Source of the DNA: a virus
Strand: one strand, 5' to 3'
DNA: 34,222 nt
UHGV virus genome: UHGV-0086334
Part shown: positions 250-17,997 of the stretch, one piece after another
Numbering within the stretch: position 1 is the stretch's first letter
Layout: each line of letters opens with the position of its first letter
Made by a program: the position numbers and the translations under genes
The notes under the pieces: model-generated
Databases searched by the model: none
Told to the model about the DNA's origin: nothing
What the model saw: only the letters and a program-made list of their open reading frames with translations

Positions 250-503
250 TGGCGCGGACACAAGGAGTCCATATGGATAAACAACTGCAAGACAAAATTC
301 TTTCCGTAATGAGTCAATCCGAGTTAGGGCGGCGATTAGGGAAAAAACCACAAACGGTAAGCCTCTGGTTCAAAGGAAGGGTTCCCGGTGAAGAGGTTTT
401 GCGCACATCTGAAGCTCTTGAATGGCGCGTGACCCCCCATGATCTTAGACCGGATCTTTACCCAAACCCAGATGACAGCTTGCCTAAAACGAAAGCAGCT
501 TAA
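246..503 (+). CDS. Cro/YdaS-like HTH DNA-binding protein
   Basis: ORF track 246..503; motif SQSELGRRLGKKPQTVSLWFKG and C-terminal VTPHDLRPDLYPNP typical of Cro/YdaS-type regulators; true start may be ATG 273. Confidence 0.6.
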   Translation: MMARTQGVHMDKQLQDKILSVMSQSELGRRLGKKPQTVSLWFKGRVPGEEVLRTSEALEWRVTPHDLRPDLYPNPDDSLPKTKAA

Positions 504-561
504 CTGTTGGTGAGCCCCAAATCTGATTAAGCGTAATCAATTTTTAGCGACAGGAGACGCT

Positions 562-1038
562 ATGGAAAACCCAGAGGAATTACAAAAAGAGATTTTGACC
601 TGGGCGGCAAGGGCAGGGCAGGAACTCGTCACGATTGAAATCTGCCGGGCTTGGTTCAGTCAGGGACGCAATGATGAGTTGAGACTACATGAATTTGAGG
701 ACGCGGACGGCAATGTGGACTGGAGAGCCATCAACAACAATCGGCAGAAAATCTTTCGCTGGTTACGTGGCGAGACAACGGCAGCGCGCCGAAAAACTCA
801 GGTGCTGGCCAGTGTGATGAAAGCCGTGCTACCCGCAGAACGGCGGGCACGTCTGGAGTCGCCGGGCGATCCCGTTTTGCTGGCAACGCTGGCGGCAAAA
901 GAAGGTGTGGAGGCGATTAACGCTGTACATCTCCACTTCGCGCCAGAGTTAACTATTCAGGAAATTGACGAAGCAATAGCGGCGCTGGTAGCGACGCGAG
1001 GGGCAGTGATAAGCACTGCGCAAGACCACCATGCATGA
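562..1038 (+). CDS. YdaT-like protein (CII-type regulator analog)
   Basis: 158 aa directly downstream of the cro-like gene; NRQKIFRWLRGET block matches my recollection of the YdaT family. Confidence 0.5.
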   Translation: MENPEELQKEILTWAARAGQELVTIEICRAWFSQGRNDELRLHEFEDADGNVDWRAINNNRQKIFRWLRGETTAARRKTQVLASVMKAVLPAERRARLESPGDPVLLATLAAKEGVEAINAVHLHFAPELTIQEIDEAIAALVATRGAVISTAQDHHA

Positions 1039-1077
1039 GCGCCTGACCAGCGTTTAACTTATACCGAGGAAAGACCG

Positions 1078-1302
1078 ATGTTAAGACATATTGACCGCAT
1101 TACCTGGCGTAACGGCTGGCACCTGAATGGACGCCCGGCACATGTTGCAGAGATCCGCCCCATATTCGATGGCCGCGTCGCAGCTGCACGTTCTGTGTGG
1201 GAAAAGTACGAAGAAGAAAAAGCGAAACTGCGTGAGCAAAATCTCTCTGGCGCTGCCTATGAGGCTGGCTGTCGCGTTCTCTCCGAGGCTTTGGGCATAT
1301 GA
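1078..1302 (+). CDS. Hypothetical phage protein
   Basis: 74-aa ORF with start overlapping the next gene; no recognisable motif. Confidence 0.4.
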   Translation: MLRHIDRITWRNGWHLNGRPAHVAEIRPIFDGRVAAARSVWEKYEEEKAKLREQNLSGAAYEAGCRVLSEALGI

Positions 1303-2309
1303 ACATCCTCCCGTTACTTGATAGACCCATAGCCTTCCAGAGAAGTTTTATCCGTCTTGAAATGGGCGTGACTGCCGCATTGTTTCTGTCGCAGTTGACG
1401 TACTGGACAAACAGAACAACTGACGACGGCTGGGTATATAAAACCCAGGATGAGTGGGAAGAGGAAACAGGGCTTTCACGATACGAGCAGGAGGGCGCGC
1501 GCAAAAAACTACGTGGTCTCGGCATCTTGCTGGAACGTAAACAGGGCTTGCCTGCCAGGCTGTACTACAAAATCGATAATGATGTGTTGTGCCAGCTACT
1601 TACGTCCGCATACAAGGATGCGGAAAAACCACATACAGGTGAGGGGAAAACCACCAGGCCTGTACGTGGAAAACCAACAAACATTCTTACAGAGAATACA
1701 ACAGAGAATACTACAGAGATTATAGATCCCCCTAACCCCCAGGGGGGAGACGGCGACGAGACCATTCTCGCTGATGCTCAAAAAGCACTGGCCAGTTACA
1801 ACGAGCAAACCAACACGCGTTGTCGCGACGTTAAACCGTTCGTTACGCTGCTGACTCCGACAAAAACGCGAACCGGTTATACCGTCGCGGAAATCGAACT
1901 GGTGATCCGCTGGGTGTTGGCAACGTGGCACCGTCGTAGCGGTAGTATGCCCAAAATCGCAAATATTTGCCGTGTAGGACGCTTTGATGGCTACCTGGCT
2001 GACGCTGAGGCCTGGGCTGTCGCTGAGGCTGCTGTAGACCCCTCTGAGGTCGTTAACGGCTACAACGAGATTTTCGCTGATTTACTGCCTGAGGCTGAAA
2101 TCGATACAGACCGCCGCCGGGCGATCATGAAACTACTGGCACACATGCGGTCGCAAACTCTCGGGGCGTTCCTGGGGTATTTCGAAAAATTCCGTGATAC
2201 CGCACCTGAATTTTATTTCGGTGGTGAGGATCGCGACGGCTGGCGGGCAGGGTTTGATTACCTGATGAAACCGGAAACGCTGCGTAAAACCAGGGAGGGG
2301 GCATTATGA
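1299..2309 (+). CDS. Phage replication initiation protein (replisome organiser, O-functional analog)
   Basis: 336 aa; N-terminal YWTNRTTDDGWVYKTQDEWEEETGLSRYEQEGARKKLRGLGIL resembles winged-helix replication initiators; stop overlaps helicase start. Confidence 0.65.
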   Translation: MNILPLLDRPIAFQRSFIRLEMGVTAALFLSQLTYWTNRTTDDGWVYKTQDEWEEETGLSRYEQEGARKKLRGLGILLERKQGLPARLYYKIDNDVLCQLLTSAYKDAEKPHTGEGKTTRPVRGKPTNILTENTTENTTEIIDPPNPQGGDGDETILADAQKALASYNEQTNTRCRDVKPFVTLLTPTKTRTGYTVAEIELVIRWVLATWHRRSGSMPKIANICRVGRFDGYLADAEAWAVAEAAVDPSEVVNGYNEIFADLLPEAEIDTDRRRAIMKLLAHMRSQTLGAFLGYFEKFRDTAPEFYFGGEDRDGWRAGFDYLMKPETLRKTREGAL

Positions 2310-3697
2310 ATCCGGAAGAACTGGAAGCGATCGTTCTCGCTGGTCTGATTAACGGTGGCGCGACGCCTGACGCGTTTGATGTGATTGCCACCACTCCGGA
2401 GGAAGCTTTCAGCATTGTGTTTCACCGCCGCGCTTTTAGCGAAATCAAAAAGCAGGCGCTGGCGAACGGCTTCATAGACATGCTGTTTCTCAGTGAATCG
2501 CTGGGCGGTTCCAGCCTTGCGGACCTGTCTCAGATATCCCGAATCCCGGCGACGGTAGCGAATCTGAAAGGCTATGCCGGGAAAATGGTGCAGGCGTGGC
2601 GGAGCCGCAAAATGGCGGCATTGTTGCAATCTGGCGCGGATGGTATCCGTAACGCTGTAAACCAGAGTCAGCGTGATGAGGTTATTGAATCTCATGTTGC
2701 TCAGGTGCTGGATATGAGCGCCGCTACCGGCACAGTCCAGCCGGTACACATCAAAGAGCTATTACCGCTCTACATTGACACCGTTGATAAACGGATGTCT
2801 GGCGACGCGCAGGAAATGATGCTGAAAACCGGAGTCGAGGATCTGGATATCGCCCTGGGCGGTATCAACATGACCGACCTTGTTGTGGTTGCCGGTCGTC
2901 CAGGCATGGGGAAAACGGAATTTACCCTGAAGATTATCGACGGCGTTACCGCAGATGGCGGCGGCGCACTGTTTTTCAGCATGGAAATGGGCGCTCAGCA
3001 GATTGTTGAACGTACCGTTGCCGGGGCTGGGAATATGTCCTCATCGCGTCTACGTAATCCAAAAGAAATGGACGATGAGGACTGGTCGCGATTAACCGCT
3101 GCGCTGGAGACCATGCAGGATCGCGATATCTGGATTGTCGATGCCACTGATTTGACGATTGAGCAGATCCGCGCCATTGCAGAAACTCATAAACGCCGTT
3201 ATCCGCACCTGAAGCTGATTGGTGTTGATTACATGGGCCTGATCAAAAAACCGAAGGCCGAGCGCCACGATCTCGCTGTGGGGCATATCTCCCGCAACAT
3301 GAAGACTATGGCCATGCGTCTGCATACCCCTGTGTTTGCTCTTAGCCAGCTTTCCCGCCAGGTGGATTCTCGACCGACTGGCCAGCGTCGCCCGGTAATG
3401 TCGGACCTGCGCGATTCCGGCAGTGTTGAGCAGGACGCTGACAGCATTTTGTTTTTGTATCGCGATGACGTTTACACACCTGATTCACCTGCAAAGGGTA
3501 TCGCTGAGGTGATTATTGGTAAAAACCGTTCTGGCGGGGCAGGTGAAATTATTTATCAGGAATTCAGGAATGGGCATTTCCTGCCAGTTGATCAACATGT
3601 AGCGCGCGAAAAATTACGCATCCAGAAGGAGTCAGAACAACCGAGAAAACGTGAAAAACGGTATTCAAACAAAAACTTTAATACGGACCCATTTTAA
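2306..3697 (+). CDS. DnaB-family replicative helicase
   Basis: 463 aa; Walker A GRPGMGKTEF, LIGVDYMGLI, FALSQLSRQV, RDSGSVEQDADSILFLYRDD are the DnaB C-terminal helicase blocks. Confidence 0.9.
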   Translation: MNPEELEAIVLAGLINGGATPDAFDVIATTPEEAFSIVFHRRAFSEIKKQALANGFIDMLFLSESLGGSSLADLSQISRIPATVANLKGYAGKMVQAWRSRKMAALLQSGADGIRNAVNQSQRDEVIESHVAQVLDMSAATGTVQPVHIKELLPLYIDTVDKRMSGDAQEMMLKTGVEDLDIALGGINMTDLVVVAGRPGMGKTEFTLKIIDGVTADGGGALFFSMEMGAQQIVERTVAGAGNMSSSRLRNPKEMDDEDWSRLTAALETMQDRDIWIVDATDLTIEQIRAIAETHKRRYPHLKLIGVDYMGLIKKPKAERHDLAVGHISRNMKTMAMRLHTPVFALSQLSRQVDSRPTGQRRPVMSDLRDSGSVEQDADSILFLYRDDVYTPDSPAKGIAEVIIGKNRSGGAGEIIYQEFRNGHFLPVDQHVAREKLRIQKESEQPRKREKRYSNKNFNTDPF

Positions 3698-4778: not shown

Positions 4779-5000
4779 ATGTTTGGCGATAACCTGGAGT
4801 TACCACGGAACGGGCGGATAGTGCTCTATATTTCAGATTACAAAGTAACCAGGGCTGAGGTGTTGGAACCGGAAAAACATTTGGTCACGTTACCGGACAT
4901 TATTGAGTTGTATAAGCGGGTCGGATATGTGGACTTGCATCGCGATGATGTTCCCGTTGAGTGTATGGAATGTGAACACCGGAGGTTTGAAGTTGATTGA
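4779..5000 (+). CDS. Hypothetical phage protein
   Basis: 73-aa ORF with GGAGGG RBS upstream. Confidence 0.4.
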   Translation: MFGDNLELPRNGRIVLYISDYKVTRAEVLEPEKHLVTLPDIIELYKRVGYVDLHRDDVPVECMECEHRRFEVD

Positions 5001-5001
5001 A

Positions 5002-5030
5002 TTGACTTAGAAAAAGCCCGGGGCTATAGT
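5002..5030 (+). promoter_or_regulatory. Near-consensus sigma70 promoter
   Basis: TTGACT (5002..5007), 17-nt spacer, TATAGT (5025..5030). Confidence 0.5.
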
Positions 5031-5092
5031 TTCCGCGCAGCCGCAAAATCGGTTGCCGGGATTTGCACCCCGGATATCTAAAAGGCGACAAC

Positions 5093-5112
5093 GACGCGCC
5101 AGCGTCTTTTTT
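5093..5112 (+). terminator. Intrinsic terminator-like hairpin
   Basis: GACGC-gcca-GCGTC followed by TTTTTT, about 60 nt downstream of the promoter and before the antirepressor gene. Confidence 0.5.
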
Positions 5113-5272
5113 ATTGTCGTGCGCACAGCCACATCCGCGATTTATGGTGGGGCGTGTAGGGGAGTCGAAAGGCTCGCCGGGTCCTTTTAGCCGGTAGTGC
5201 AAACCCTGCATGTCTCACCACCCAAAGATTTGCACCTGAGGGGGGTGATTATCCGACTAAAAGGAAATCGCT

Positions 5273-6067
5273 ATGACAACTCAAGTATCCGCAGCAGCCA
5301 TCTCCCCGATTATCCACAACCAACTTCCCGTCCTCACCACCGAGTTACTCGCGAATCTCTATGGCACAGAGCCGGATTACATTCGTAAAAACCATAACCG
5401 GAACTCAGAGCGATTCGTGGTCGGGAAGCATTACTTTTTGCTCGAAGGTGAGGAGTTGCGCGAATTTAAGCACAGCATGTCTTTAAGACCTCCTGTGAAA
5501 ATCGCCAGAAATGTCCGCTCTCTCATCCTCTGGACAGAACGCGGCGCAGCTCGCCATGCCAAAATGCTGGAAACAGAACAGGCCTGGGAAGTTTTCGAAA
5601 AGCTGGAAGATTGTTATTTTAGCCAGCGTCCAGAGAGGCGGAGTACAACCACCGATGACCGTACTCCCTTACGTGATGCCGTTAATATGCTGGTCGGCAA
5701 GAAAGGCATGATGTATCCCGATGCCTACACCATGATTCACCAACGTTTCGCCGTCTCTCACATAGAACAACTGTCACAGACGCAAATGTTAGAGGCGATT
5801 GAATACATCCACTGCCTGCTGCTCGATGAAAATCAGCCAACCATTCCAGATTTTTCTTTTATCACCACTATCAAAAATGGAAAAGTGACCAGAATGCGCC
5901 ATGTTGCCAAAGGCGAACATCTGATGACCTTTGACGCTTTCAAAGAGATCGCTGAGCGGGCTGGGTATCTGGTGATCCACAGCGACAACCTGCGAAGTAT
6001 GACGTTGGATAAATTGATGCTAATGGGAAAAAAGTCGGCTGTATCTGTTGCTGACTCAGCATTTTGA
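5273..6067 (+). CDS. Antirepressor-like protein with ORF6N domain
   Basis: 264 aa; LPVLTTELLANLYGTEPDYIRKNHNRNSERFVVGKHYFLLEGEELREFK fits the ORF6N/KilA-N-type N-terminal antirepressor domain. Confidence 0.6.
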   Translation: MTTQVSAAAISPIIHNQLPVLTTELLANLYGTEPDYIRKNHNRNSERFVVGKHYFLLEGEELREFKHSMSLRPPVKIARNVRSLILWTERGAARHAKMLETEQAWEVFEKLEDCYFSQRPERRSTTTDDRTPLRDAVNMLVGKKGMMYPDAYTMIHQRFAVSHIEQLSQTQMLEAIEYIHCLLLDENQPTIPDFSFITTIKNGKVTRMRHVAKGEHLMTFDAFKEIAERAGYLVIHSDNLRSMTLDKLMLMGKKSAVSVADSAF

Positions 6068-6244: not shown

Positions 6245-7168
6245 TTATTGGTTTCTGAGGAAAGCGATTCTTGAAAGGGTCATTTGCGTCTGGCAGTCGA
6301 CCATTTTCTTGACTTCAGCATCTGTTCCCTGCATTGAAACTTTACCGCACATAGCATCCTTAGTTTTGATCCACTGACGCTGAGAAGGCAGCAACTCTTT
6401 TTTCTTCGCCGGCGTTAACCTGCCCCAGACTGTATTCAAATCAGAGTCAGCATTCGCAAATGCCATTCGGGACTGATCAAGGCTTTCAGCTTTTTGCGGC
6501 TGAAGTTGTGCCTGCCTCTCTATTTGCTTCTCCGCCTCATACTTAGCCTGTTCCTGCGCCCTGAGTTGCACCTGTTGTTCCGCTTCAATTTGGCTCTGTA
6601 GGGCATCCTTAGCCTGCTGGATTTTCTGCTGCTCAACGATCGGGTTGATAATAGAAAGTGATGTCAGTAAAGCGGCGCCCACTGATATCGGATTATCAGA
6701 AGAGGTTTTTACAAAAACGTTTTTCTGATCGTCGGTCGCCTGCACGGTGTAGGTGATACGTTTGGAAAAGGCGTTTGCGTTGTTCTCCAAAAACAGGCTT
6801 TCCATTTGCTTGTCGAGATTACGATTAAAATTCTTTCTGTAAGCATCTGAAAGCTGGACGTATTCGTTCGCAGGTAGAGTCATCGTCACGGTCCCTTCAC
6901 AAGTTTTCATTGTGCTGCCCGTGTCACTTGATGTTGTGGAGATTTCAGAGATGGCTAGTTTGATCTTGTCCAGTGTGCTTCGTTTGGTCTGATTAGTGAC
7001 ATCAGGGTATTTATCGACCTGTTCAGAGAGTCCTTCATAAACAGATTTTTTTAATAAATCCATGAGAGCTGATTGGGTCATTTCCGAAGAACAACCGATC
7101 TCATCTTTTTTGTTATCACAGCCTGTAAGGGCAATGGCGAGTAAGAGTACTGAGTATTTTAATCTCAT
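6245..7168 (-). CDS. Lipoprotein with C-terminal DUF1311/LprI-like domain
   Basis: 307 aa; signal peptide with lipobox LTGC; coiled-coil Q/E-rich middle; C-terminal SQRQWIKTKDAMC...C resembles the DUF1311 (lysozyme-inhibitor LprI) motif. Confidence 0.55.
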   Translation of the reverse strand: MRLKYSVLLLAIALTGCDNKKDEIGCSSEMTQSALMDLLKKSVYEGLSEQVDKYPDVTNQTKRSTLDKIKLAISEISTTSSDTGSTMKTCEGTVTMTLPANEYVQLSDAYRKNFNRNLDKQMESLFLENNANAFSKRITYTVQATDDQKNVFVKTSSDNPISVGAALLTSLSIINPIVEQQKIQQAKDALQSQIEAEQQVQLRAQEQAKYEAEKQIERQAQLQPQKAESLDQSRMAFANADSDLNTVWGRLTPAKKKELLPSQRQWIKTKDAMCGKVSMQGTDAEVKKMVDCQTQMTLSRIAFLRNQ

Positions 7169-7620
7169 GAATTCCCTTTAGAGTAAGGATTGGTTTTTAA
7201 GACGCGGTCTGTAATCAGTTCCGAGAGCTATAGTAAACAACGCTGAGCACTGAACGCATCACAGGCAAGGTAAAAGGTGATATCGGCAAAGGCTGTGAAA
7301 CCTTTAATTCAACAGATGGGAACGGTATGCGCAGGATCCTGTAACGACGCTCCCAAAACCGGAAACCTGTAAGGCAGGTTTTCGCTGCTGAACTTAATAT
7401 ACGAACCTGCACTTTCATGAACATATTTTATATCGTTATAGCCCTAGTGATTGCGCCCGGCAATAGATAGTGTCCTGGAGGAACTATTTCTACTGTAAAA
7501 GGTAGACATTTAATTTCAGTGTGGAATTATTCCCTGCTGTTAATAACAATGGCTGTATCTGGCACCGAGTAGGCATTGATTTTTTTAAATTCAATTGCGT
7601 TATTAATATTACTTCATTTT

Positions 7621-8181
7621 TTATTTTAAAGTACAGCCTGCCCGAAATGCACTGCTAATTTCAACATATTCCGCTCTGGCCGTACCTCTAAGTTTCTGAG
7701 ACTCACGTTCAAAACTCGCCAAATCTTCCTTACATTTTGCCGAAGTAGACTGGAATCCTTTCCCGCACATCTGAAATGTGACTGTCGGATCCGCAAATCG
7801 GGTACGCTGGGCGTAAGCCTGGCAAACAGCGGATGCCCTCGCTTGTTTTTGTCGTGGGCTTAACGGGCGTGCTGGTGTAGCCTGTTCTGCCCTCTCCATT
7901 TTCAGGCGGTAGCAGCTTAAATTACGAGAGGCGATCACCTTTTTAATAGCCTGGGCGCGGCGATAATTTTCATTAAATTCAGGATGAGATGATGGATTAA
8001 GGTTGAGCAATGGCTCTATATTATCTTCTGCCTGGCAAAGCTGTGAATCGGTGTACTGCGCAAGTTTTGCCGCCTCGATTGCAGCCGGATCTGGTTGTGA
8101 ATTTTTTGGGGTATGGCTTACACATCCGGACAGCGTAAATCCAGCGGTCAGTGCTAAGATGATTTTTGATATTCCGTTCAT
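7621..8181 (-). CDS. Lipoprotein, unknown function
   Basis: 186 aa; N-terminal MNGISKIILALTAGFTLSGC signal peptide with lipobox; several Cys. Confidence 0.5.
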   Translation of the reverse strand: MNGISKIILALTAGFTLSGCVSHTPKNSQPDPAAIEAAKLAQYTDSQLCQAEDNIEPLLNLNPSSHPEFNENYRRAQAIKKVIASRNLSCYRLKMERAEQATPARPLSPRQKQARASAVCQAYAQRTRFADPTVTFQMCGKGFQSTSAKCKEDLASFERESQKLRGTARAEYVEISSAFRAGCTLK

Positions 8182-8312
8182 TTTCTATTCCTGTTTCGAT
8201 GTTTTGGTGGTGCACTTTTCCCACTCGGATAAGATTATGCATTCGGATTCGAGTGATGAGGCAACGCCATATAGGCGATGGCAGCCAGCACGATGGTGAT
8301 TAAAATATTTAA

Positions 8313-9548
8313 TCAGAATTTCCGTTCTTTCCAGCGTTTAACCAACGCGGCCATGTTCAGCGGCCATAATTTAGGCTCAATCACTTTGCCTTCAAACATC
8401 GCGCCGAGCTCAATACCTGGGGCAAAATGTACGGTCATTGTTTCAGGGTTGACGGCCATCAGCTCTGCGTCTAGTAAGTCGTGTATCGTTGGAGTCAACA
8501 ACAGGCCATTATCAGCGCTAAAATTGCCTGAGGTAGCTGGCTCAATGTGCGCCGCTTGCAATCGTTCGCCGTTCTGCCAGCCAGTCACCGCGCAACGGCC
8601 AGCAAAATTATTCCATACCCATTCAACGAACTGCATATGCGCCGTCGCGTCGCGCTGCTCAACGATGCGCTGCGCGGTTCGGGTACTGTGGAGTTTGACA
8701 GGTTGGCCAAGCGCGGGCGCGGGTTTATCTTCCTCCACGACTACCACTACTTCCTGCGACATGATGATTCGATCATCGGCTACCAGTTCCGGAACAACAT
8801 CGGCCAGCTTCTCGGCTTCTCGGATGATTTGCTTTTCTTCCTGATCATCCAGGTACCGCTGCACCAGTTCAATGGTCGTGGTGGCTTCATGCTGGTGTTT
8901 GTGGATATAAAGCTCAACATCACGACGCTGGCTGGCTGGAATGTGTTTTGCCAGAAAATCCTGTAGGACGCGATTATCCAGCTTTGTCGTAACTTTTGAT
9001 GTCATGCTCACAGAATCATACCGTTTCGGTGTTTCCATCTGCGTTGATTGCAGGCCTGGTAATTCGGTGTTGATTTGAGCGGAAACCTTGCGCGGGATGA
9101 TTGTCGGCGTAAATGCTGGCGTGCTGGCCTGGGACGTGCCACGGCGACGGGCATTCTCCCAAAGGGCTTCTGTTTCAGGGTTTTTGCGTGCGCCTGGCTT
9201 TTGCATAGGCATAGTGCGAATCAGCGCTTCCCAGCCCATATTGACCTTCTGTTTGGCCTCGCGGCGTTTATCGGCCAGCGTAGGTTTTGATGGTCGTTTT
9301 TTGGAGAGCGCTTTCTCTGGTTTTAATTTGATGCCGCGCGATAAACCATTTATCAGTGTTGGATGCACTGATAAGGCTTTGGCCAATTGCAAACCGTTTA
9401 AATTGCTGCCATCTGTATAAGCGTACATAAACAAATCCGCCCAGCCATCATGTTGAGGGGTCATACCCACGCTGGTTAAGGCTGCGCGAATCTCTTTTTT
9501 GCGAGCTTTGTCCAAGTTAAATTTTGGGGTTTTATTTCGCTTAGTCAT
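8313..9548 (-). CDS. HNH-family nuclease domain protein
   Basis: 411 aa; C-terminal CAVTGW-x7-LQAAHIEP-x10-NGLLLTPTIHDLLD matches an HNH-type nuclease core; N-terminal 300 aa basic, unassigned. Confidence 0.6.
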   Translation of the reverse strand: MTKRNKTPKFNLDKARKKEIRAALTSVGMTPQHDGWADLFMYAYTDGSNLNGLQLAKALSVHPTLINGLSRGIKLKPEKALSKKRPSKPTLADKRREAKQKVNMGWEALIRTMPMQKPGARKNPETEALWENARRRGTSQASTPAFTPTIIPRKVSAQINTELPGLQSTQMETPKRYDSVSMTSKVTTKLDNRVLQDFLAKHIPASQRRDVELYIHKHQHEATTTIELVQRYLDDQEEKQIIREAEKLADVVPELVADDRIIMSQEVVVVVEEDKPAPALGQPVKLHSTRTAQRIVEQRDATAHMQFVEWVWNNFAGRCAVTGWQNGERLQAAHIEPATSGNFSADNGLLLTPTIHDLLDAELMAVNPETMTVHFAPGIELGAMFEGKVIEPKLWPLNMAALVKRWKERKF

Positions 9549-9628
9549 TTCAGTTCAGCACACTAATAATGGTAACCATGACCGCAGCAAACACGATCCC
9601 CGAAATATTCATTACTGCCATATATTGG

Positions 9629-10480
<852 letters not shown>

Positions 10481-10512
10481 TCATGTCAATTGACAACTTA
10501 TAGTTCCCACTA

Positions 10513-10606
10513 GTTAGCATTAAGATTTTTACAGTGAGGAATAATCAATGTCCGCTCCTGGCACAGAGTGGACGAACAACTGAAGACCCGCTGTGAGCGA
10601 GAAACA
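10513..10606 (+). repeat. Structured cassette-boundary repeat, copy 1 (most diverged)
   Basis: GTTAGC motif, hairpin GTCCGCT/AGTGGAC (10550..10573), then ACTGAAG and CGCTGTGAGCGAG shared with copies 2 and 3. Confidence 0.55.
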
Positions 10607-10760
10607 GACATCACAACTCACAAGGATTATACGCAGTTTGTTATCCAAACATACGGGTGCCAAGTGTTATAATCCGGCACTAACAGCATGATGCTTGGAA
10701 GTACATTTAAATGTAAAATGATAGTGTACTCTGACTGAAGCCTGGTAAAAAGGAACTGAT

Positions 10761-12140
10761 ATGTACAACAACCTCTATGCCCTCACAGAAAGCCTTTTCT
10801 GGGTTGATCGACTTTTAGATCAGGAATATGAAAATATTGGATTGAATGAATTGCTAATTGAGTTAGATGAATATAATAAAAGAATAGATTCACTGATTAT
10901 CGAGCAAGCAAATTCTGTACAGGAGTCTCGGCTAAATGTTTACATGGCGGGAAATCGTAATATTGAAAGGTATAAGAGTGGACTGTTTTCAATGGACAGA
11001 GTCATTCTTGATGATGTTCTGTATTCATTGAGCCTACGATACAGAGTGAGTCTAACAGAAAATGCATTTGAAAAAATTATTGTAAGCGATAGAAAAGAGA
11101 AGGTTGAACATCTCAGGAAGGAAATTGCTAGATTTATCAGGTTTGCTAAAGAAAACTTTGATCTTATCCGTGGTGAGTTTATCGTTTTTGTACGAAGCGA
11201 ATCTTCTATTAAAGATTCGGAGAGGGCCAATGGAATTTTAGACGATAACTCTGATGCTAATTTTATATATCGATATCTCCCTCCTAACATTGCCCGTCTT
11301 TATGAAAATAGACTATCCGTAAAGAATATAGAACGTCTAGGTAATACAAATAAAATTCGGTTATTAAACAAAAATGTTTTATCGAATGAAATTATGTTGG
11401 AAATTAAAGACTGTGAAAGTTTATATACAAATGGATATATGTATCAACATATAAAAAATGCCATTGATAATGATGATGGCTCCATATCTATGGAGCTTGT
11501 CATGGGAAATCATAGCGGAAAAAAAAGTTATGAACGGTGGGTGCAGGGAGCAAAAAACCGTACGGTTCTCTTTCATTATAAAAACCTTATTACTGACCTT
11601 AACCAAGCGCATTCATGTAGAGCATCCCTGGGTGCATATTGCCCGTTTCATGGAGAGATTCTTCGTAAACTTGATCAAAAGAATGAAGTTCAGAGGGTTA
11701 AACTCTCTATAGACGTTCCATTCTTAGAGGGACTGACTCCAAGTGAACTCTACAAAATTAGAACTGACTACGAGCCGAGTTTTAATTCTTTCCGCTCTGT
11801 ACTACGTGAAGCTGCGTATGATATAGAAGCAGAAAGTGATCCATATAAGAGACAACTAATAAATCAACATTTTGTCGAGCGGGTGTGGGATGAAGGATTG
11901 ACAGATATTGAGCAAAAAATACAAGCCTATAAGCGGAAGAGTAAAAAAGAACTTTTTCTTAACAGTGTGCCTTCATTGATAGGTTTTATTGGTGCACCAA
12001 ATCCAGTGTCGTTGGCTACAGGAGCTTTTACGATTCTAAAAGATGTCTTTAATATTACAAGCCATTCTTTAGAAATAAAGAGCCACCCTTCATATTTCCT
12101 TCTCATGATGTCAAAAGCCAAAAACAAACCTTATGACTGA
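10761..12140 (+). CDS. Hypothetical protein (459 aa), AT-rich cassette 1
   Basis: Long ORF with Lys/Asn/Ile-rich composition unlike surrounding phage genes; no motif I can assign. Confidence 0.55.
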   Translation: MYNNLYALTESLFWVDRLLDQEYENIGLNELLIELDEYNKRIDSLIIEQANSVQESRLNVYMAGNRNIERYKSGLFSMDRVILDDVLYSLSLRYRVSLTENAFEKIIVSDRKEKVEHLRKEIARFIRFAKENFDLIRGEFIVFVRSESSIKDSERANGILDDNSDANFIYRYLPPNIARLYENRLSVKNIERLGNTNKIRLLNKNVLSNEIMLEIKDCESLYTNGYMYQHIKNAIDNDDGSISMELVMGNHSGKKSYERWVQGAKNRTVLFHYKNLITDLNQAHSCRASLGAYCPFHGEILRKLDQKNEVQRVKLSIDVPFLEGLTPSELYKIRTDYEPSFNSFRSVLREAAYDIEAESDPYKRQLINQHFVERVWDEGLTDIEQKIQAYKRKSKKELFLNSVPSLIGFIGAPNPVSLATGAFTILKDVFNITSHSLEIKSHPSYFLLMMSKAKNKPYD

Positions 12141-12248
12141 GGCAGTAGAAAATAAAGTGAAAATATATTCACTTAAGAAAGATGGTTCTAAAGGGACATA
12201 ATTAGATTAACCCAGTGACCTGTTCCCCTTGAATCAACATAGGCTGTT

Positions 12249-12320
12249 GTTAGCTACTTCCGCTTCTGACACGAAGCGGACAAAAAACTGAAGGTCCGCT
12301 GTGAGCGAGGAGCGGAAGTT
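12249..12320 (+). repeat. Structured cassette-boundary repeat, copy 2
   Basis: GTTAGCTA, 8-bp-stem hairpin TCCGCTTC/GAAGCGGA (12259..12280), ACTGAAGG, second hairpin TCCGCT-gtgagcgagg-AGCGGA, ends GCGGAAGTT. Confidence 0.6.
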
Positions 12321-12463
12321 GATTTTATTGAGAGTAAAACAGATCTATAGTAAATGGTCTTGTTATGTAGGGGATTTACGATAATTTTACTACCAAGGTC
12401 GTTAAAAATTCATATGAAATATCAACGATAGTGACCTATTTTTCATAAGGCCACTATATGAAT

Positions 12464-13126
12464 CTATTGTTCTATTTTAATTTTATTTAACGTTATAGGG
12501 GCTGGGTTATAGCTAGGTATATATAATATCTCACTCCCTAGCTTGCGCTCTTTTATATTTACTTCTTTAGCGACAAGGTTACCGTCATACAACCTAATAA
12601 TCACGTAGTCTTTAGATTGATCATGAAAGTAACTAAATTCTTTTTTTAATGACGCTTGTTGTAAACCAATTAAGAAACTAAATGTCATTATGGCAATAAG
12701 GGGAAGGGTTGCAGACCAAATTAAATAACTTGGATTACGTTTATGATTTTTAACAATTTTGTATATAATATAAGTAACTGTTGCTATCGATAAACTTAAA
12801 ACGAAAAAACCACCATATTCAGTCTTATGTCTATAAGACTGAACAATAAAAACAATCATGATAAAAACTGTAACTGCAGTAACTTTAACTGCTTTTACTT
12901 TACTTTCAGGCCATGGAGTAAAAAACATCAACATAACACAAATTATATTAAAAAATAAATATGACATACCCACGAATAAAAATTTAGAATCTAACGTTAT
13001 AAACTCCATAGGATAATCAAAATGATATGCATAGCCATATTCAAATGAAATTGCAGACATATAAGATAGAACAGTTATTGCCAATATTAGCAAGGCTTCC
13101 TTGCTTTTTATAAAGTCAATTATCAT
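12464..13126 (-). CDS. Integral membrane protein (220 aa), AT-rich cassette 2
   Basis: Several hydrophobic helices in N-terminal 150 aa followed by a soluble C-terminal domain. Confidence 0.55.
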   Translation of the reverse strand: MIIDFIKSKEALLILAITVLSYMSAISFEYGYAYHFDYPMEFITLDSKFLFVGMSYLFFNIICVMLMFFTPWPESKVKAVKVTAVTVFIMIVFIVQSYRHKTEYGGFFVLSLSIATVTYIIYKIVKNHKRNPSYLIWSATLPLIAIMTFSFLIGLQQASLKKEFSYFHDQSKDYVIIRLYDGNLVAKEVNIKERKLGSEILYIPSYNPAPITLNKIKIEQ

Positions 13127-13441
13127 GATGTTTGTTTTTTAATGAATAAAATAATCACTTACCAGACAGTTAATCTTCTTAATTGTCATTGTGTTAAGTG
13201 AACCCCGAATTTTTCTCAGTTCTTCTGAAGAAGTCCTCACGTATATGATAACAACCAAAAAAATTTTTTTCACTAATTATACTAAAATCCATGAAGAATC
13301 AGCAGTGTGAAGCAGGGAGAATCTCTAACAAGAGACGCCGTCATTTTGTAAATTTCCCGGCAAACCAGATCATCTGCTTTTAGACATAGGATTCAATGTG
13401 CTATTACGGCGAGCTGTTCCCACAGATTGATGGAGATAGAT

Positions 13442-13519
13442 GTTAGCAATGCCCGCTTTTGGTACGAAGCGGGCAAGCTAACTGAGTTGAAATTTCGCTG
13501 TGAGCGAGGAGCGGAAGTT
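13442..13519 (+). repeat. Structured cassette-boundary repeat, copy 3
   Basis: GTTAGCAA, hairpin GCCCGCTT/AAGCGGGC (13451..13474), ACTGAG, TCGCTGTGAGCGAGGAGCGGAAGTT nearly identical to copy 2. Confidence 0.6.
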
Positions 13520-13604
13520 CGTAATTGTTCTCGCAGCTAGGGTAGCTAAAAGACACGGCAGGCAAATGTCTACATGTAGGATACACTTGCTATTATCAAG
13601 AATT

Positions 13605-14384
13605 TTAGTCCTGAAGCATTTTAACTTTCTTCTCATGTTTTTTATATTCGCCATTTATCCATTCAGGTTCTTCCCGAATAGCTGAGCGCATACAGTATGT
13701 TGGGATATCATTCCAGAAAGCTGTAATCGCATCTGCAAACTCTATAAACTGTGTTTCTGTAACCTCAAGTTGCTCATGACGTAGACTAAATCTGTAGCCT
13801 CTTGGAATATTGATATCCTGATAATACTCAGGATGCGCGACGGAAAGCACCCGATGGGCATGGCCATCACCGTGCTTATAAACATTAACCACTTGGCGAC
13901 AGGCATCGATTTTTTCGTAATAAGCCTTGCTGGTGATATCCATCCCAATCCATTCTAGAATTTCAATTAGCCTTGGGAAGCTAATGTCCCAGATCATCGA
14001 TGTTACGGATTTAGCGTCGAGCCAATGGCTGAATTCTCTGATACACTTCTCTCTAAGTTCCTTGTCGAACTGATGAAACATTCCTGCTGTCAGAGCAAGT
14101 GAAACCGTATTTTTCATATCACTGAGAGCAATCCAATGTGAAATTCCTTCATCATGAGCCTGTTCACAGATAGCCCCTTCGTCGTCATAATCGGGGTCAA
14201 AACGCTTACCGGCGGCCTCATAGTAATCTTGTTCTCTCTGCCTGGCTTCAGCTTCAAGATCAGAATCGCTAAACTGCGAAAATAGACGCTTTCTGGCTTC
14301 AGCAACATAAAAATTGTGTTTGTCGAGGAAGTAAGACCGATCAATGGTTGCAAAATAAAAAAGTGAAAAATCTTTGTTGCTCAT
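13605..14384 (-). CDS. Hypothetical protein (259 aa), AT-rich cassette 3
   Basis: ORF track; acidic, no recognisable motif. Confidence 0.5.
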   Translation of the reverse strand: MSNKDFSLFYFATIDRSYFLDKHNFYVAEARKRLFSQFSDSDLEAEARQREQDYYEAAGKRFDPDYDDEGAICEQAHDEGISHWIALSDMKNTVSLALTAGMFHQFDKELREKCIREFSHWLDAKSVTSMIWDISFPRLIEILEWIGMDITSKAYYEKIDACRQVVNVYKHGDGHAHRVLSVAHPEYYQDINIPRGYRFSLRHEQLEVTETQFIEFADAITAFWNDIPTYCMRSAIREEPEWINGEYKKHEKKVKMLQD

Positions 14385-14798
14385 GGGGATCTCCCTCGTT
14401 TTGTCAGTTGTACAAGCCCCTGGAAGTAGGCTACTAATAAAGAAAAAATTACCTTTGAATAACTGTGCAAGATAGCAGTACGCCTAAAAGTAGTGCAAGT
14501 ATCCCAACCAGGATAACGATGCGTTTTCAAATATCTGACTTAACGCTTGCGATATCCGCTCTGGCAACAAAGTGGACTGTCAGATTAAATTTGTCTTCAC
14601 GCCATAGATGTGTCAGCTCATATCTTATCTAATACACACAACATTCTCTCATTCTTAGAGAATTAATCTTTTAAGGGTAGGTGTTGACGTTAGAACAAAA
14701 GAATAGATATTTTTGAAGCATATAATATGAGCTATAACCATAGGACGCATATAAAAGCTTACGGTGTGGTCTTATAATTTGGCACAAATGATTTACTA

Positions 14799-14826
14799 AC
14801 CCGCTTCGGCGGGTCTTCTTTTTTAT
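14799..14826 (+). terminator. Intrinsic terminator
   Basis: CCCGC-ttcg-GCGGG followed by TCTTCTTTTTTAT. Confidence 0.55.
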
Positions 14827-14830
14827 AGAC

Positions 14831-14843
14831 TTCACGATGTGAA
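14831..14843. promoter_or_regulatory. Palindromic operator-like site TTCACGATGTGAA
   Basis: Near-perfect palindrome about 50 bp upstream of ORF 14894; a second copy lies upstream of the next ORF. Confidence 0.35.
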
Positions 14844-14893
14844 AACGAATAATAAATTGTGCAAATAATGCAGTTTTATTATTCGAGGTAATT

Positions 14894-15535
14894 ATGAAAA
14901 CCCTCTATGAGGACTGGCCTGAAACTTTCGTTAGCCGATTAGATATGTTACGAGCTCTGGATGATCGCGGCTCGACCCGGAGGCTCTATCTTGAGCGGAC
15001 CGGGGCAATATTTGACGCTCTGGCAGAAGAGATACGTACAGCCGTTACCAGGCATCCTGAAATCGACGCGAGTGAACTTGATATCGGGCCGCTGTATCGC
15101 TATTACAAACGTGGAGAAAAGGGGAATCCGCTGGCTGACTTACTTATTGAGTTGGCTCCACCAACTTGTGAACGGGTTCGTATATCTCCTGAAGTGTACA
15201 CAATCCCGTATCTGTTTTTTGCACTGTTGATAGCGCAAGGCGCTGACAACGATGCCCGCGATTTTTTCAATATGATGATGCGACCGTTAATCATCGCCTA
15301 CCGTTTCAAACAACTGGCGCGTTACCTTGGCACTAAGGGCGGAGGACGACCACAGCACAGATTAAAAAGCGAAGCCATTGAACTGGCTGATCGTTTTTTT
15401 ACTGAAAACCCGACAGCGCCATTATCGCGTGGTGTGCAATACATATCCGGTATTTTTGTGGCGAAATACTCTGACCCACCTGCAGCGTCGACGATTAGAA
15501 AATGGTTAATTTCAATTTACAGGAGTGATAAATAA
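14894..15535 (+). CDS. Hypothetical protein (213 aa)
   Basis: ORF track; stop followed by inverted repeat AAACGGTTT/AAACCGTTT (15544..15572). Confidence 0.5.
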   Translation: MKTLYEDWPETFVSRLDMLRALDDRGSTRRLYLERTGAIFDALAEEIRTAVTRHPEIDASELDIGPLYRYYKRGEKGNPLADLLIELAPPTCERVRISPEVYTIPYLFFALLIAQGADNDARDFFNMMMRPLIIAYRFKQLARYLGTKGGGRPQHRLKSEAIELADRFFTENPTAPLSRGVQYISGIFVAKYSDPPAASTIRKWLISIYRSDK

Positions 15536-15591: not shown

Positions 15592-15686
15592 TATAATTGT
15601 TCATTATTCCCTCATTGTATTTGGCGTTATGACAAATGCCATAAAATACTGTATAAATGTACAGGTAATGGCGTTAGGGGGAAGAC

Positions 15687-15866
15687 ATGAATATTCAAGA
15701 ATCTATAGGCGAACTACCGGAAACATGCCGGGCTGTTATCAAGCGTAAGGACGGACACATCGTTGGTGTGCGTGTTCTGACCGATGATGAACGGATTGCC
15801 AGCCTGATGGCGTTTCTCGAGTTGGCAGAAATAGCTGGATATACTATTACACCCCCTGACGCGTAA
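15687..15866 (+). CDS. Small hypothetical protein (59 aa)
   Basis: My reading: ATG 15687 preceded by GGGGGAAG; translation MNIQESIGELPETCRAVIKRKDGHIVGVRVLTDDERIASLMAFLELAEIAGYTITPPDA. Confidence 0.3.
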   Translation: MNIQESIGELPETCRAVIKRKDGHIVGVRVLTDDERIASLMAFLELAEIAGYTITPPDA

Positions 15867-16540: not shown

Positions 16541-16830
16541 AAAAAATCGACCTGAGAAAAGCTGCACGTGGTCGCGCTTGTACTGTGCGTATCCCCGGTG
16601 TGTGCAATCACAATCCTGAAACCAGCGTACTGGCTCATTATCGTCTCGCCGGAACGTGCGGCACAGCCATCAAACCTCACGATATGCAGGGCGCTATCGC
16701 CTGTAGTGCGTGTCACGATGCCATCGACGGACGTACAAAAACGGATTACGGGCACGACTCATTGTTGTTGATGCACGCTGAGGGAGTTTTCAGAACACTG
16801 GCTATCTGGCGCGATGAGGAGTTTATCTGA
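16537..16830 (+). CDS. YbcO-like (DUF1364) putative nuclease
   Basis: 97 aa; DLRKAARGRACTVRIPGVCNHNPETSVLAHYRL and ACSACHDAIDGR Cys/His pattern recalls E. coli YbcO. Confidence 0.65.
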   Translation: MKKIDLRKAARGRACTVRIPGVCNHNPETSVLAHYRLAGTCGTAIKPHDMQGAIACSACHDAIDGRTKTDYGHDSLLLMHAEGVFRTLAIWRDEEFI

Positions 16831-17501
16831 TGAGTAACGAGTATTTATTGGAATATACCCGCATAAAACTGCGCGCTGCATTGCGGGATTTGTCTGGTGG
16901 TTCTAAGGGGCAACTGGAAGCATTGTGTGAGCACCCACCGGCAGACAAAAACGCATACCCACGCAAACATATTCACCGTGTGCAGCTGGAGGACCGGACC
17001 GTTGATGCTCTGGTTACGCCAGTTTACGCTCTGGAAAGTTTCAGCAGACGTCGCCCCGCGCCGCCGATGAGTGATTTTGAATTTGCTGATTCATCCTGGC
17101 GGCGTTCTGTGAACTCGCTGGATGCAAGTCAGCAAGCGTGGTTGCGTTATTGCTACGGTGGTAACCTGGCATTCAAACACCAAACAGCTATTTGTGAGGC
17201 TGTCTGGAGTCGCTATAAAGGAAACATCCCCGCGTCAACTCAGAGAAAAGTAGTTAAGCGCCTGCTTTCGTTGGTGTGGTTGTCCGTGCAGGCGGTCGCA
17301 GCATCAAATAAACGCGAAGATTTTAAGGAGATGGCCGGATCTGCGCTAGCTGGAATGTTGTCTGTTTCTCGTTCCACCTGGTGCGAAACATACTCCCCGC
17401 ACTGGGCAGGAATGAAAGAGGCGGTGAGAGCACTTGATGAAGTGGCACTTCTTGCAACTTTGCATCATTATCAAAACCATTTAGACGACGTTTGCGTATA
17501 A
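16830..17501 (+). CDS. Putative late-gene antiterminator (Q-like); function inferred from position
   Basis: 223 aa between nin-like nuclease and holin, followed by a 112-bp intergenic region; sequence assignment weak. Confidence 0.4.
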   Translation: MSNEYLLEYTRIKLRAALRDLSGGSKGQLEALCEHPPADKNAYPRKHIHRVQLEDRTVDALVTPVYALESFSRRRPAPPMSDFEFADSSWRRSVNSLDASQQAWLRYCYGGNLAFKHQTAICEAVWSRYKGNIPASTQRKVVKRLLSLVWLSVQAVAASNKREDFKEMAGSALAGMLSVSRSTWCETYSPHWAGMKEAVRALDEVALLATLHHYQNHLDDVCV

Positions 17502-17613
17502 TGCTTGCAAAACCGAACAAAATAGGCCATATTTAACGCTAATTTGGTATATTGCCAAATTTCTAAGAACCTCGCCACGGCGGGGTTTTGTCGTTTCTGA
17601 ATCAGGAAAAATC

Positions 17614-17997
17614 ATGTCTGAACCTCTAACCGCTGGCGTTGCTGCTGGCTCGGCGGGGGTGACGTTTGCTGCGTTATTTCCTGAGGCAACACCTGCAGTG
17701 ATGATCTGTGCGCTGGCAGGCGCAGCTCTCTATGTGTTGTCATCCGGGCAGCATCGATTCTGGAAGCAGGTTATTTTCGCACTCATTTCGTTTGTTGGCG
17801 GTGTGTATTGCGCTGAGACAGCGTCAGCAATCATTACCGGTATTCTGAACGCGGTGCTGAGTCACCTGAACCCTCCCGTAACAGTAAAAGTCTCTCCCGC
17901 CATTGGTGCACTGGTTGCATCAGTAATCAGCGTTACATCACTGTTGCGGATCATGTCACAAGCTCGTTTATGGAAATCAGATAAGGGGATGAAATAA
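17614..17997 (+). CDS. Putative holin
   Basis: 127 aa with three to four hydrophobic helices, first gene after the Q-like gene. Confidence 0.5.
   Translation: MSEPLTAGVAAGSAGVTFAALFPEATPAVMICALAGAALYVLSSGQHRFWKQVIFALISFVGGVYCAETASAIITGILNAVLSHLNPPVTVKVSPAIGALVASVISVTSLLRIMSQARLWKSDKGMK

Follow-up and report, generated by a model that had tools for sequence, protein, structure and literature searches.

A probable immI-type RNA switch upstream of the antirepressor gene in a lambdoid prophage of Escherichia coli

We analysed a 34,222-nt stretch of viral DNA (UHGV virus genome UHGV-0086334, hereafter the window), an E. coli lambdoid prophage. The interval 5002-5272, directly ahead of the antirepressor gene ant, very likely constitutes a complete immI-type RNA switch on this gene, a judgement that includes the general logic of the switch. 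The interval holds a promoter, a small RNA of the IsrK family and a C4 antisense RNA. Two short sequences complementary to C4 are present twice, once within IsrK and once in the ant leader. All elements of this cassette, as well as ant itself, are encoded on the plus strand.

Results

The first segment of the operon encodes an IsrK RNA

The cassette begins with a sigma-70 promoter (PisrK, 5002..5030), which consists of the -35 element TTGACT (5002-5007), a 17-nt spacer and the -10 element TATAGT (5025-5030). In agreement with a preliminary description of this DNA, which had reported a consensus promoter at this location, 10 of the 12 positions match the consensus, and a promoter scan found no other sigma-70-like match between 3500 and 7000. 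The spacing from the -10 element to +1 is identical to that in Gifsy-1 of Salmonella, from which G5037 is predicted to be the transcription start.

Further downstream, a GC-rich 5-bp terminator hairpin (GACGC-GCCA-GCGUC, 5093..5106) is followed by a run of six Ts (5107..5112), likewise as described before. A small RNA had been proposed as one of two alternatives for the short transcript expected between promoter and terminator, and this alternative proved correct: the segment 5037..5112 scores 76.2 bits against the Rfam family isrK (RF01394; gathering cut-off 50) and covers the entire model (positions 1-77 of 77). This 76-nt RNA, the terminated first segment of the operon, is composed of hairpin 1 (5037-5056), hairpin 2 (5057-5072), the terminator hairpin (5093-5106) and the terminal U6 (5107-5112). 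Its minimum-free-energy fold shows two 5' hairpins plus the terminator and agrees with the family model. In a permissive search a further family, c4-a1b1 (RF03163, 'a1, b1 targets of C4 antisense RNA'), was found at 5024-5076 with 45.8 bits, slightly below its cut-off of 46.7; this match overlaps the one to isrK.

At gathering thresholds, an Rfam search of the whole window yielded exactly two matches, isrK and C4, which adjoin each other on the plus strand; both are full-length, with E-values of 1e-13 to 1e-15. Simple pattern scans gave one promoter-like match, where 4.7 were expected from shuffled sequences, and four terminator-like matches, where 3.7 were expected. As these counts do not go beyond the shuffle expectation, the scans were not used as evidence. 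We judge the features to be real because they are kept in register in homologous loci and because the two Rfam matches exceed their gathering scores. Of 68 unique homologous loci, 61 have the promoter motif TTGAY-N17-19-TAnnnT at the corresponding position, and an alignment of 35 sequences contains compensatory changes in six of the seven base pairs of IsrK hairpin 1 and in three of the five terminator pairs. Chance, in the form of a functionless pair of promoter-like hexamers next to an accidental GC hairpin, would be compatible with the scan counts; it is extremely improbable in view of the two full-length Rfam matches and of the in-register conservation and compensatory changes in dozens of loci.

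Control of the cassette by LexA was considered and rejected, as no LexA box (CTGT-N8-ACAG, up to two mismatches) is present between 4353 and 5493. The 103-aa ORF on the minus strand (4900-5211) and the plus-strand ORFs of 44-45 aa across IsrK and C4 were taken to be mechanical, since they overlap two structured RNAs.

A C4 antisense RNA is flanked by two pairs of target sites

The second Rfam match, C4 (RF01695), spans 86 nt (5140..5225) between the IsrK terminator and ant, with 73.6 bits at a gathering cut-off of 45 and model positions 1-87 of 87. By register with the annotated c4 RNA of P1, the mature RNA is predicted to be a 77-nt species at 5146-5222. C4 folds into a 17-bp closing stem around two hairpins (minimum free energy -44.1 kcal/mol, z = -5.06). 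The recognition element a' (GUGCAAA, 5197-5203) is single-stranded and located between hairpin 2 and the closing stem, while b' (CCUUUUAG, 5183-5190), the reverse complement of CTAAAAGG, forms the loop of hairpin 2. Both hold the same structural positions as a' (CUGUCAA) and b' (CACUAAC) of P1.

All four target sites were located, and they are arranged and spaced as annotated in P1. The two sites within IsrK, its putative decoy targets, are a1 (UUUGCAC, 5062-5068) in the loop of hairpin 2, complementary to a', and b1 (CUAAAAGG, 5078-5085) in a single-stranded stretch, complementary to b'. In the ant leader, a2 (UUUGCAC, 5229-5235) follows 6 nt past the predicted 3' end of C4. The last site, b2 (CUAAAAGGA, 5257..5265), contains CUAAAAGG (5257-5264) and overlaps the Shine-Dalgarno sequence of ant, AAGGA (5260-5264), which lies inside it; the ATG follows b2 at a distance of 7-8 nt.

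These sites account for a repeat that had been noted earlier, with the motif GATTTGCACC at 5060 and 5227 and an inverted TTTGCAC at 5199. We confirmed both copies of the motif, and they are the only ones in the 34-kb window (expectation 0.10; none of 100 shuffles contained two); the heptamer alone occurs nine times, where eight copies are expected. The inverted heptamer is present as well, at a position 2 nt away from the one given, 5197..5203. The two motif copies correspond to the target sites a1 and a2, and the inverted heptamer is the a' element of C4. In the preliminary description both had remained unexplained because the C4 RNA had been missed. The second (b) set of targets had also been overlooked.

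When C4 was co-folded with IsrK or with the leader in RNAcofold, the monomers stayed folded and the dimers gained only -0.8 to -1.4 kcal/mol; kissing interactions are beyond what the program can represent, and the loop-loop contacts were accordingly missed. In duplex energy the exposed C4 segment was matched or surpassed by 6 and 1 of 500 mononucleotide shuffles, which lends weak support to the pairing.

Recognition elements and targets co-vary among homologous loci

To compare loci, viral contigs were scanned for the exact pattern of the conserved 5' strand of C4, which yielded 120 loci. P1, Gifsy-1 and one E. coli homologue were added, and 68 unique cassettes could be parsed. They contain 13 types of a' and 26 types of b' in 35 combinations. 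Despite this diversity, complementarity of at least 7 nt between a recognition element and its cognate target was found for a1 in 97%, for a2 in 100%, for b2 in 88% and for b1 in 50% of the 68 loci, as opposed to 2-3% of the non-cognate pairings (1.8% for a1/a'). Complementarity is weakest at b1, with a median b1/b' match of 6.5 nt for cognate and 4 nt for non-cognate pairs. In the alignment of 35 sequences, six of the seven a1-a' pairs carry changes on both sides. We read such co-varying pairs as the signature of an RNA-RNA interaction that determines specificity, as in the heteroimmunity of P1 and P7.

For b1-b' the MAFFT alignment was dropped and replaced by a register-free complement search. 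Only 40% of this helix was paired in the alignment because b' loops of variable length had been misregistered; the P1 group was in addition shifted by one column in a'.

The architecture of the cassette is conserved along with the pairing. A terminator-like hairpin with a T-run precedes C4 by 30-39 nt in 51 of the 68 loci, the exceptions belonging chiefly to the P1 group. In all 63 loci that could be scored, the end of b2 and the start codon that follows it are at most 15 nt apart, most commonly 10-12 nt. Both isrK and C4 score above threshold, at the same spacing, in each of 13 lambdoid-type loci tested, while P1 combines c4-a1b1 with C4. The genes behind the cassette belong to at least five antirepressor-type families, namely ORF6N, Rha, AntA (AntA/AntB), Bro-N and Icd. 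As the gated gene varies among the loci, we regard the cassette as a portable controller of antirepressor-type genes.

The antirepressor gene and its location in the prophage

The gene ant (5273..6067) encodes a protein of 264 aa with an N-terminal ORF6N domain (Pfam PF10543, E = 1.2e-18) and a C-terminal segment resembling phrog_340. It matches the PHROG 'anti-repressor' family with E = 8e-150, consistent with the antirepressor ORF that had been placed about 160 bp beyond the hairpin; the start codon lies 161 nt past the T-run and 50 nt past C4. Ant and AnrP of Gifsy-1 both contain ORF6N and share 67% identity across the first 120 aa (E = 1e-55). The C-terminal domain of Ant differs from that of AnrP and is longer. 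No icd-like ORF was found between C4 and ant.

The cassette is located downstream of the replication genes. Genes for a YdaT-like protein, an O-like initiator and a DnaB-type helicase and the small ORFs of the nin region precede it; the genes after ant are accessory ones in the opposite orientation. On the downstream side, the cassette is succeeded by an accessory island of about 10 kb and then by DUF1367, YbcO, Q and the genes for lysis and terminase. The surrounding 3.5 kb are covered to at least 80% in 435 of 5426 complete E. coli genomes, while no more than 16 genomes carry the RNA cassette with this specificity at 99% identity or higher; in E. coli RM10042 the module is 100% identical. 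The rarity of this specificity relative to its surroundings fits a modular exchange of the cassette. In the RefSeq entry of a 98.7% identical E. coli prophage, the interval from the last ORF of the nin region to the ORF6N gene is devoid of annotated features. No match to isrJ or to a tRNA was obtained in the window, and a tblastn search of phages with a LexA-boxed 59-aa protein gave no link to the Gifsy antirepressors.

The gene order also bears on the comparison with pR'-tR' of lambda that had been drawn in the preliminary description, according to which a terminator-gated leader would make antirepressor expression dependent on antitermination. Like pR'-tR', the cassette places a strong promoter, with a short transcript that soon terminates, ahead of the regulated genes. 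If such a gate operated, a phage antiterminator, Q or N, acting at or upstream of the promoter would be needed for antirepressor expression. An intrinsic terminator about 60 nt after the promoter with the gene beyond it, and the need for read-through in Gifsy-1 (PMC4825925), would agree with this, and from a location in the early-right operon antiterminated upstream transcripts could traverse the cassette. We nevertheless consider a gate of this kind very improbable. In lambda, pR'-tR' adjoins Q and drives the late operon, whereas Q in the window (16830..17501) lies 11.5 kb downstream of the cassette and has its own strong terminator hairpin (17566..17589) shortly ahead of the lysis genes, and no late genes follow the cassette. 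By eye, nothing in 5031-5060 suggested a Q-binding or a sigma-dependent pause element. In Gifsy-1, read-through was seen in a reporter plasmid with the isrK-orf45-anrP' segment alone, and the block observed there is that the isrK promoter drives transcription of anrP without translation (PMC4825925). Moreover, the four co-varying targets and the C4 RNA would be left unexplained. The analogy with pR'-tR' is therefore not upheld, as Q is remote and no characterised relative uses a protein antiterminator as a gate. What stands of the terminator-gated leader is the need for read-through, as in Gifsy-1; a dependence on antitermination does not, since the relatives gate by RNA-RNA pairing.

Discussion

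Proposed mechanism of the switch

In the immI-type switch that we propose, a constitutive-looking sigma-70 promoter would fire at about 5037, and most transcripts would end at the intrinsic terminator (5093-5112) and yield free, 76-nt IsrK. By analogy with the homologues, a fraction would pass the terminator and carry the C4 precursor together with the ant mRNA. C4, matured to approximately 5146-5222, would pair with the leader, a' with a2 and b' with b2. With b2 covering the Shine-Dalgarno sequence of ant, ribosome binding would be blocked and no Ant produced, as is to be expected from P1. IsrK should be able to pair with C4 because it carries a second copy of both targets, a1 and b1, whether in cis, as part of the transcript that has passed the terminator, or as a decoy acting in trans. 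An excess of IsrK would then lift the block by C4, a step for which Gifsy-1 serves as the model. C4 is reportedly matured by RNase P (Hartmann et al. 1995). Rho-dependent polarity is a further feature of P1.

Comparison with the immI operon of P1

The immI operon of P1 and P7 reportedly has the order P51-a1-b1-c4-a2-b2-icd-ant (Citron & Schuster 1990). The window and P1 agree in how the target pairs are ordered and spaced relative to a 77-nt C4, in a single-stranded a', in a b' that forms the loop of hairpin 2 and in a b2 that lies on the ribosome-binding site of the gene next downstream. The distances are similar in the window and in P1, with 16 and 14 nt between a1 and b1, 28 and 29 nt between a2 and b2, 6 and 3 nt from the end of C4 to a2, and 7-8 and 10 nt from b2 to the ATG, respectively. 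In the GenBank entry of P1 (NC_005856), a1, b1, a 77-nt c4 RNA, a2, b2, icd and ant are annotated, with a note on 'repression of icd ant translation'; a1 and b1 are labelled 'putative'.

There are also differences. In P1, icd is located between c4 and ant, and the expression of ant is coupled to icd translation, whereas ant of the window directly follows the C4 leader. The upstream segment of the window contains a compact intrinsic terminator and scores as isrK, while that of P1, in which a 6-bp stem carries a 12-nt loop and precedes T5, scores only as c4-a1b1. Unlike in the immI region of P1, no operator of the C1 type is annotated or evident in the window. Finally, the host element is a lambdoid prophage in one case and a plasmid prophage in the other.

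Does the C4 RNA act on translation or on transcription?

In N15, a small processed RNA (CA RNA) of the immA region controls icd-antA/B. The cassette resembles both N15 immA and the immunity region of P4 (seqA-CI RNA-seqC) in that the transcript contains a processed, C4-like RNA with a complementary target region on either side; the RNAs belong to the same Rfam clan (CL00128), and the DNA of these regions is weakly similar to that of the window cassette. The cargo differs, as P4 controls replication genes and the window an antirepressor. In P4, the output is premature termination of transcription, unlike the masking of a ribosome-binding site (summarised in PMC4825925).

An output of the P4 and N15 type, in which the C4-like RNA acts mainly on transcription, would be compatible with the main model. 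Pairing with the nascent a1/b1 would then enforce termination of IsrK, or Rho-dependent termination would occur after a2/b2, and the switch would be an autoregulated termination device. Several observations point in this direction. The weak BLAST matches to the P4 immunity region fall under a feature annotated as 'transcriptional repressor', and the stretch of N15 that the cassette matches is annotated as a putative Rho-independent terminator. In the window, only 7 nt separate the end of b1 from the terminator stem, a hairpin that is conserved in most loci as described above, and the authors of the Gifsy-1 study raised the same possibility for STnc1160, an RNA processed from that locus (PMC4825925). 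On the other hand, constitutive STnc1160 strengthened rather than weakened the IsrK-dependent growth arrest in Gifsy-1 (PMC4825925), a scan revealed no second intrinsic terminator in 5112-5273, and in practically every locus b2 falls on the ribosome-binding region, which argues for translation as the target. Hence, we regard a mainly transcriptional output as unlikely, though it deserves to be taken seriously, and retain masking of the ribosome-binding site by C4 as the preferred reading.

Comparison with isrK-orf45-anrP of Gifsy-1

Among the characterised systems, Gifsy-1 offers experimental data on IsrK. There, IsrK is a promoter-driven small RNA with a Rho-independent terminator (Hershko-Shalev et al. 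2016, PMC4825925). Deletion of the isrK promoter abolishes transcription, part of the transcripts pass the IsrK terminator to give the antirepressor mRNA, and IsrK supplied in trans increases the translation of anrP 139-fold (PMC4825925). The authors likened the locus to seqA/CI of P4, with IsrK as a structural homologue of seqA (PMC4825925). The window agrees with Gifsy-1 in the geometry of the promoter, in an IsrK of 76-77 nt with three hairpins and a Rho-independent terminator, in a C4-type RNA about 27 nt further on, in the a2/b2 sites of the leader and in the ORF6N antirepressor. The recognition elements are different, with ACGCCAA (a') and CGGUGAU (b') in Gifsy-1 and GUGCAAA and CCUUUUAG in the window. 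Gifsy-1 also has a Q-like gene, antQ, directly upstream and isrJ directly downstream of the locus; neither is found at these places in the window, where the small nin-region ORFs lie upstream.

The published compensatory mutants of Gifsy-1, G28A/C162U and G31A/C159U (PMC4825925), can be placed on the pairing described here. For this mapping +1 was set to position 1520 of our Gifsy-1 locus (L003), fixed by the first AUG of the paper, A107. G28/C162 and G31/C159 then fall on two of the seven a1-a' pairs. Similarly, 'orf45' (L003 1626-1763) coincides with C4 and the a2/b2 leader. This region also gives rise, by processing, to STnc1160, an RNA of about 80 nt, and the nucleotide sequence of 'orf45' was noted to be conserved while its amino-acid sequence is variable (PMC4825925). 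One result does not follow from a simple decoy model: the cis mutation G28A in a1 raised basal translation from 4 to 93 units (PMC4825925), an increase that such a model does not predict. We therefore have lower confidence in the exact role of a1/b1 than in the rest of the switch.

In the published Gifsy-1 model, activation proceeds through the translation of the 45-codon ORF, which is coupled to that of anrP (PMC4825925). Taken literally for the window, IsrK would unlock a small coding 'orf45' coupled to the translation of the antirepressor, and the C4-like fold would be incidental. In Gifsy-1, SPA-tagged orf45 is indeed translated upon induction of IsrK, and mutations of its start or stop codon lower the activation of anrP (PMC4825925); the window retains an AUG at 5144 and the sequence ATGA at the ant start. 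However, the frame from this AUG ends after 17 codons at a TAG (5195-5197), 76 nt ahead of the ant ATG, whereas the Gifsy-1 ORF has 45 codons and its stop overlaps the anrP start (AUGA). With a frame of 17 codons, the coupling step of Gifsy-1 cannot work here as described; either the step is dispensable or the regulation is different. No ORF is conserved among the 68 loci, in which the corresponding AUG opens frames as short as 8 and as long as 86 codons or more; the stretch itself scores as a full-length C4. The literal model is consequently very improbable for the window, and we keep to the C4-based switch.

A possible common circuit

Tentatively, and with somewhat less than even confidence, we suggest that the 'c4/a2b2' model of P1 and the 'IsrK/orf45' model of Gifsy-1 describe the same three-part RNA circuit. 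'orf45'/STnc1160 would then be the C4 gene and not a conserved coding ORF, and IsrK would be the long-unexplained a1/b1 segment of P1, set free by a terminator of its own. The leakiness of this terminator would set the ratio of IsrK to C4, i.e. of decoy to repressor, and hence the threshold for the antirepressor. The 13 by 26 recognition types could serve as orthogonal 'addresses' in the cross-talk among co-resident prophages.

In the Gifsy-1 paper (PMC4825925) we found no mention of P1, the immI region or Citron, and a 2025 review gives IsrK and c4 as separate items. The present comparison identifies IsrK as the a1/b1 half of the C4 system and shows that 'orf45' of Gifsy-1 coincides with the C4 RNA, two points that are not brought together in the literature searched. 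The cassette itself belongs to an already known kind of RNA control, that of P1 and Gifsy-1; it is genuine but ordinary, and not a new kind of system. The present analysis adds its full anatomy, including C4 and a second pair of targets, and brings together IsrK and a1/b1 as well as 'orf45' and C4, which should be of modest specialist interest. For the prophage, an unannotated gap of 270 bp becomes three named functional elements, and the antirepressor would be placed under post-transcriptional control by RNA, which bears on how and when the prophage can be induced.

Diversity of the recognition elements and possible alternative RNA pairings

In the related loci from viral contigs (L004-L123) and the phage collection, the C4 recognition elements a' and b' are very diverse and reassorted, with 13 a' types and 26 b' types occurring in 35 combinations. 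The pair found in the window, GUGCAAA (a') with CCUUUUAG (b'), is otherwise seen only in its E. coli homologue; the same a' is also present in L028, L068 and L108, there together with other b' types. Among the phage records listed, a single one (LC710660.1) carries an isrK annotation.

Between the C4 targets a2 and b2 in the ant leader lies a conserved element, GGGGGGUGAU in the window (5240..5249) and GGUGGUGAU in most relatives; its complement is found in the C4 closing stem, whose 3' strand reads UCACCACCC (5214..5222). Judged from this complementarity, the two segments could pair in an unprocessed read-through RNA and form an alternative hairpin with a2 in its loop, a predicted arrangement that mirrors hairpin 2 of the small RNA IsrK, where a1 is presented. 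The IsrK terminator hairpin could likewise be extended in a read-through RNA, as CGACAA directly 5' of its stem (5087-5092) is the reverse complement of UUGUCG directly after the U-run (5114-5119). The 'TTATTGTCG' tail at this terminator is common to many related loci.

Late control region and accessory island

The actual Q-type late control region of the prophage is located at 16830..17614. It comprises the Q gene (16830-17501; Pfam Phage_antiter_Q) and, downstream of it, a terminator-like hairpin with a 10-bp stem and a T-run (17566-17589), 25 nt past which the first ORF of the lysis region starts (17614).

The antirepressor and late-control genes are separated by an accessory island (6245..15535), which encodes an LprI-family lipoprotein (6245-7168), an HNH_2 protein (8313-9548) and a GIY-YIG protein (9629-10480), all three on the minus strand, as well as a 459-aa ORF (10761-12140) that has no match in Pfam or PHROG. 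The homologous prophage of E. coli RM9387 carries, closely upstream of the helicase gene, an IS66-family element (tnpA, tnpB, ISEc23 transposase; 265..2681 of its locus) that the window lacks; the remainder is 98.7% identical.

A LexA-boxed ORF and the phrog_340 domain

A perfect LexA box, CTGTATAAATGTACAG (15649-15664), is followed 22 nt downstream by the ribosome-binding site and ATG of a 59-aa ORF (15687-15866), a member of the family phrog_340 (E = 1.6e-20). The arrangement resembles that of the small genes under SOS control from which Gifsy prophages make antirepressors (PMC3121763); a tblastn search against phages gave no connection between the 59-aa protein and the Gifsy antirepressors.

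This ORF is one of three copies of the small phrog_340 domain in the window. Another is a free-standing 73-aa ORF (4779..5000) ending 2 nt ahead of the IsrK -35 element, and the third forms the C-terminal part of Ant, the antirepressor gated by the RNA cassette (residues 199-240; 5867..5992). Aligned, the copies are 25-26% identical and have the motif ...AG/VGY...D in common. In these antirepressors, the effector function may reside in the phrog_340 domain.
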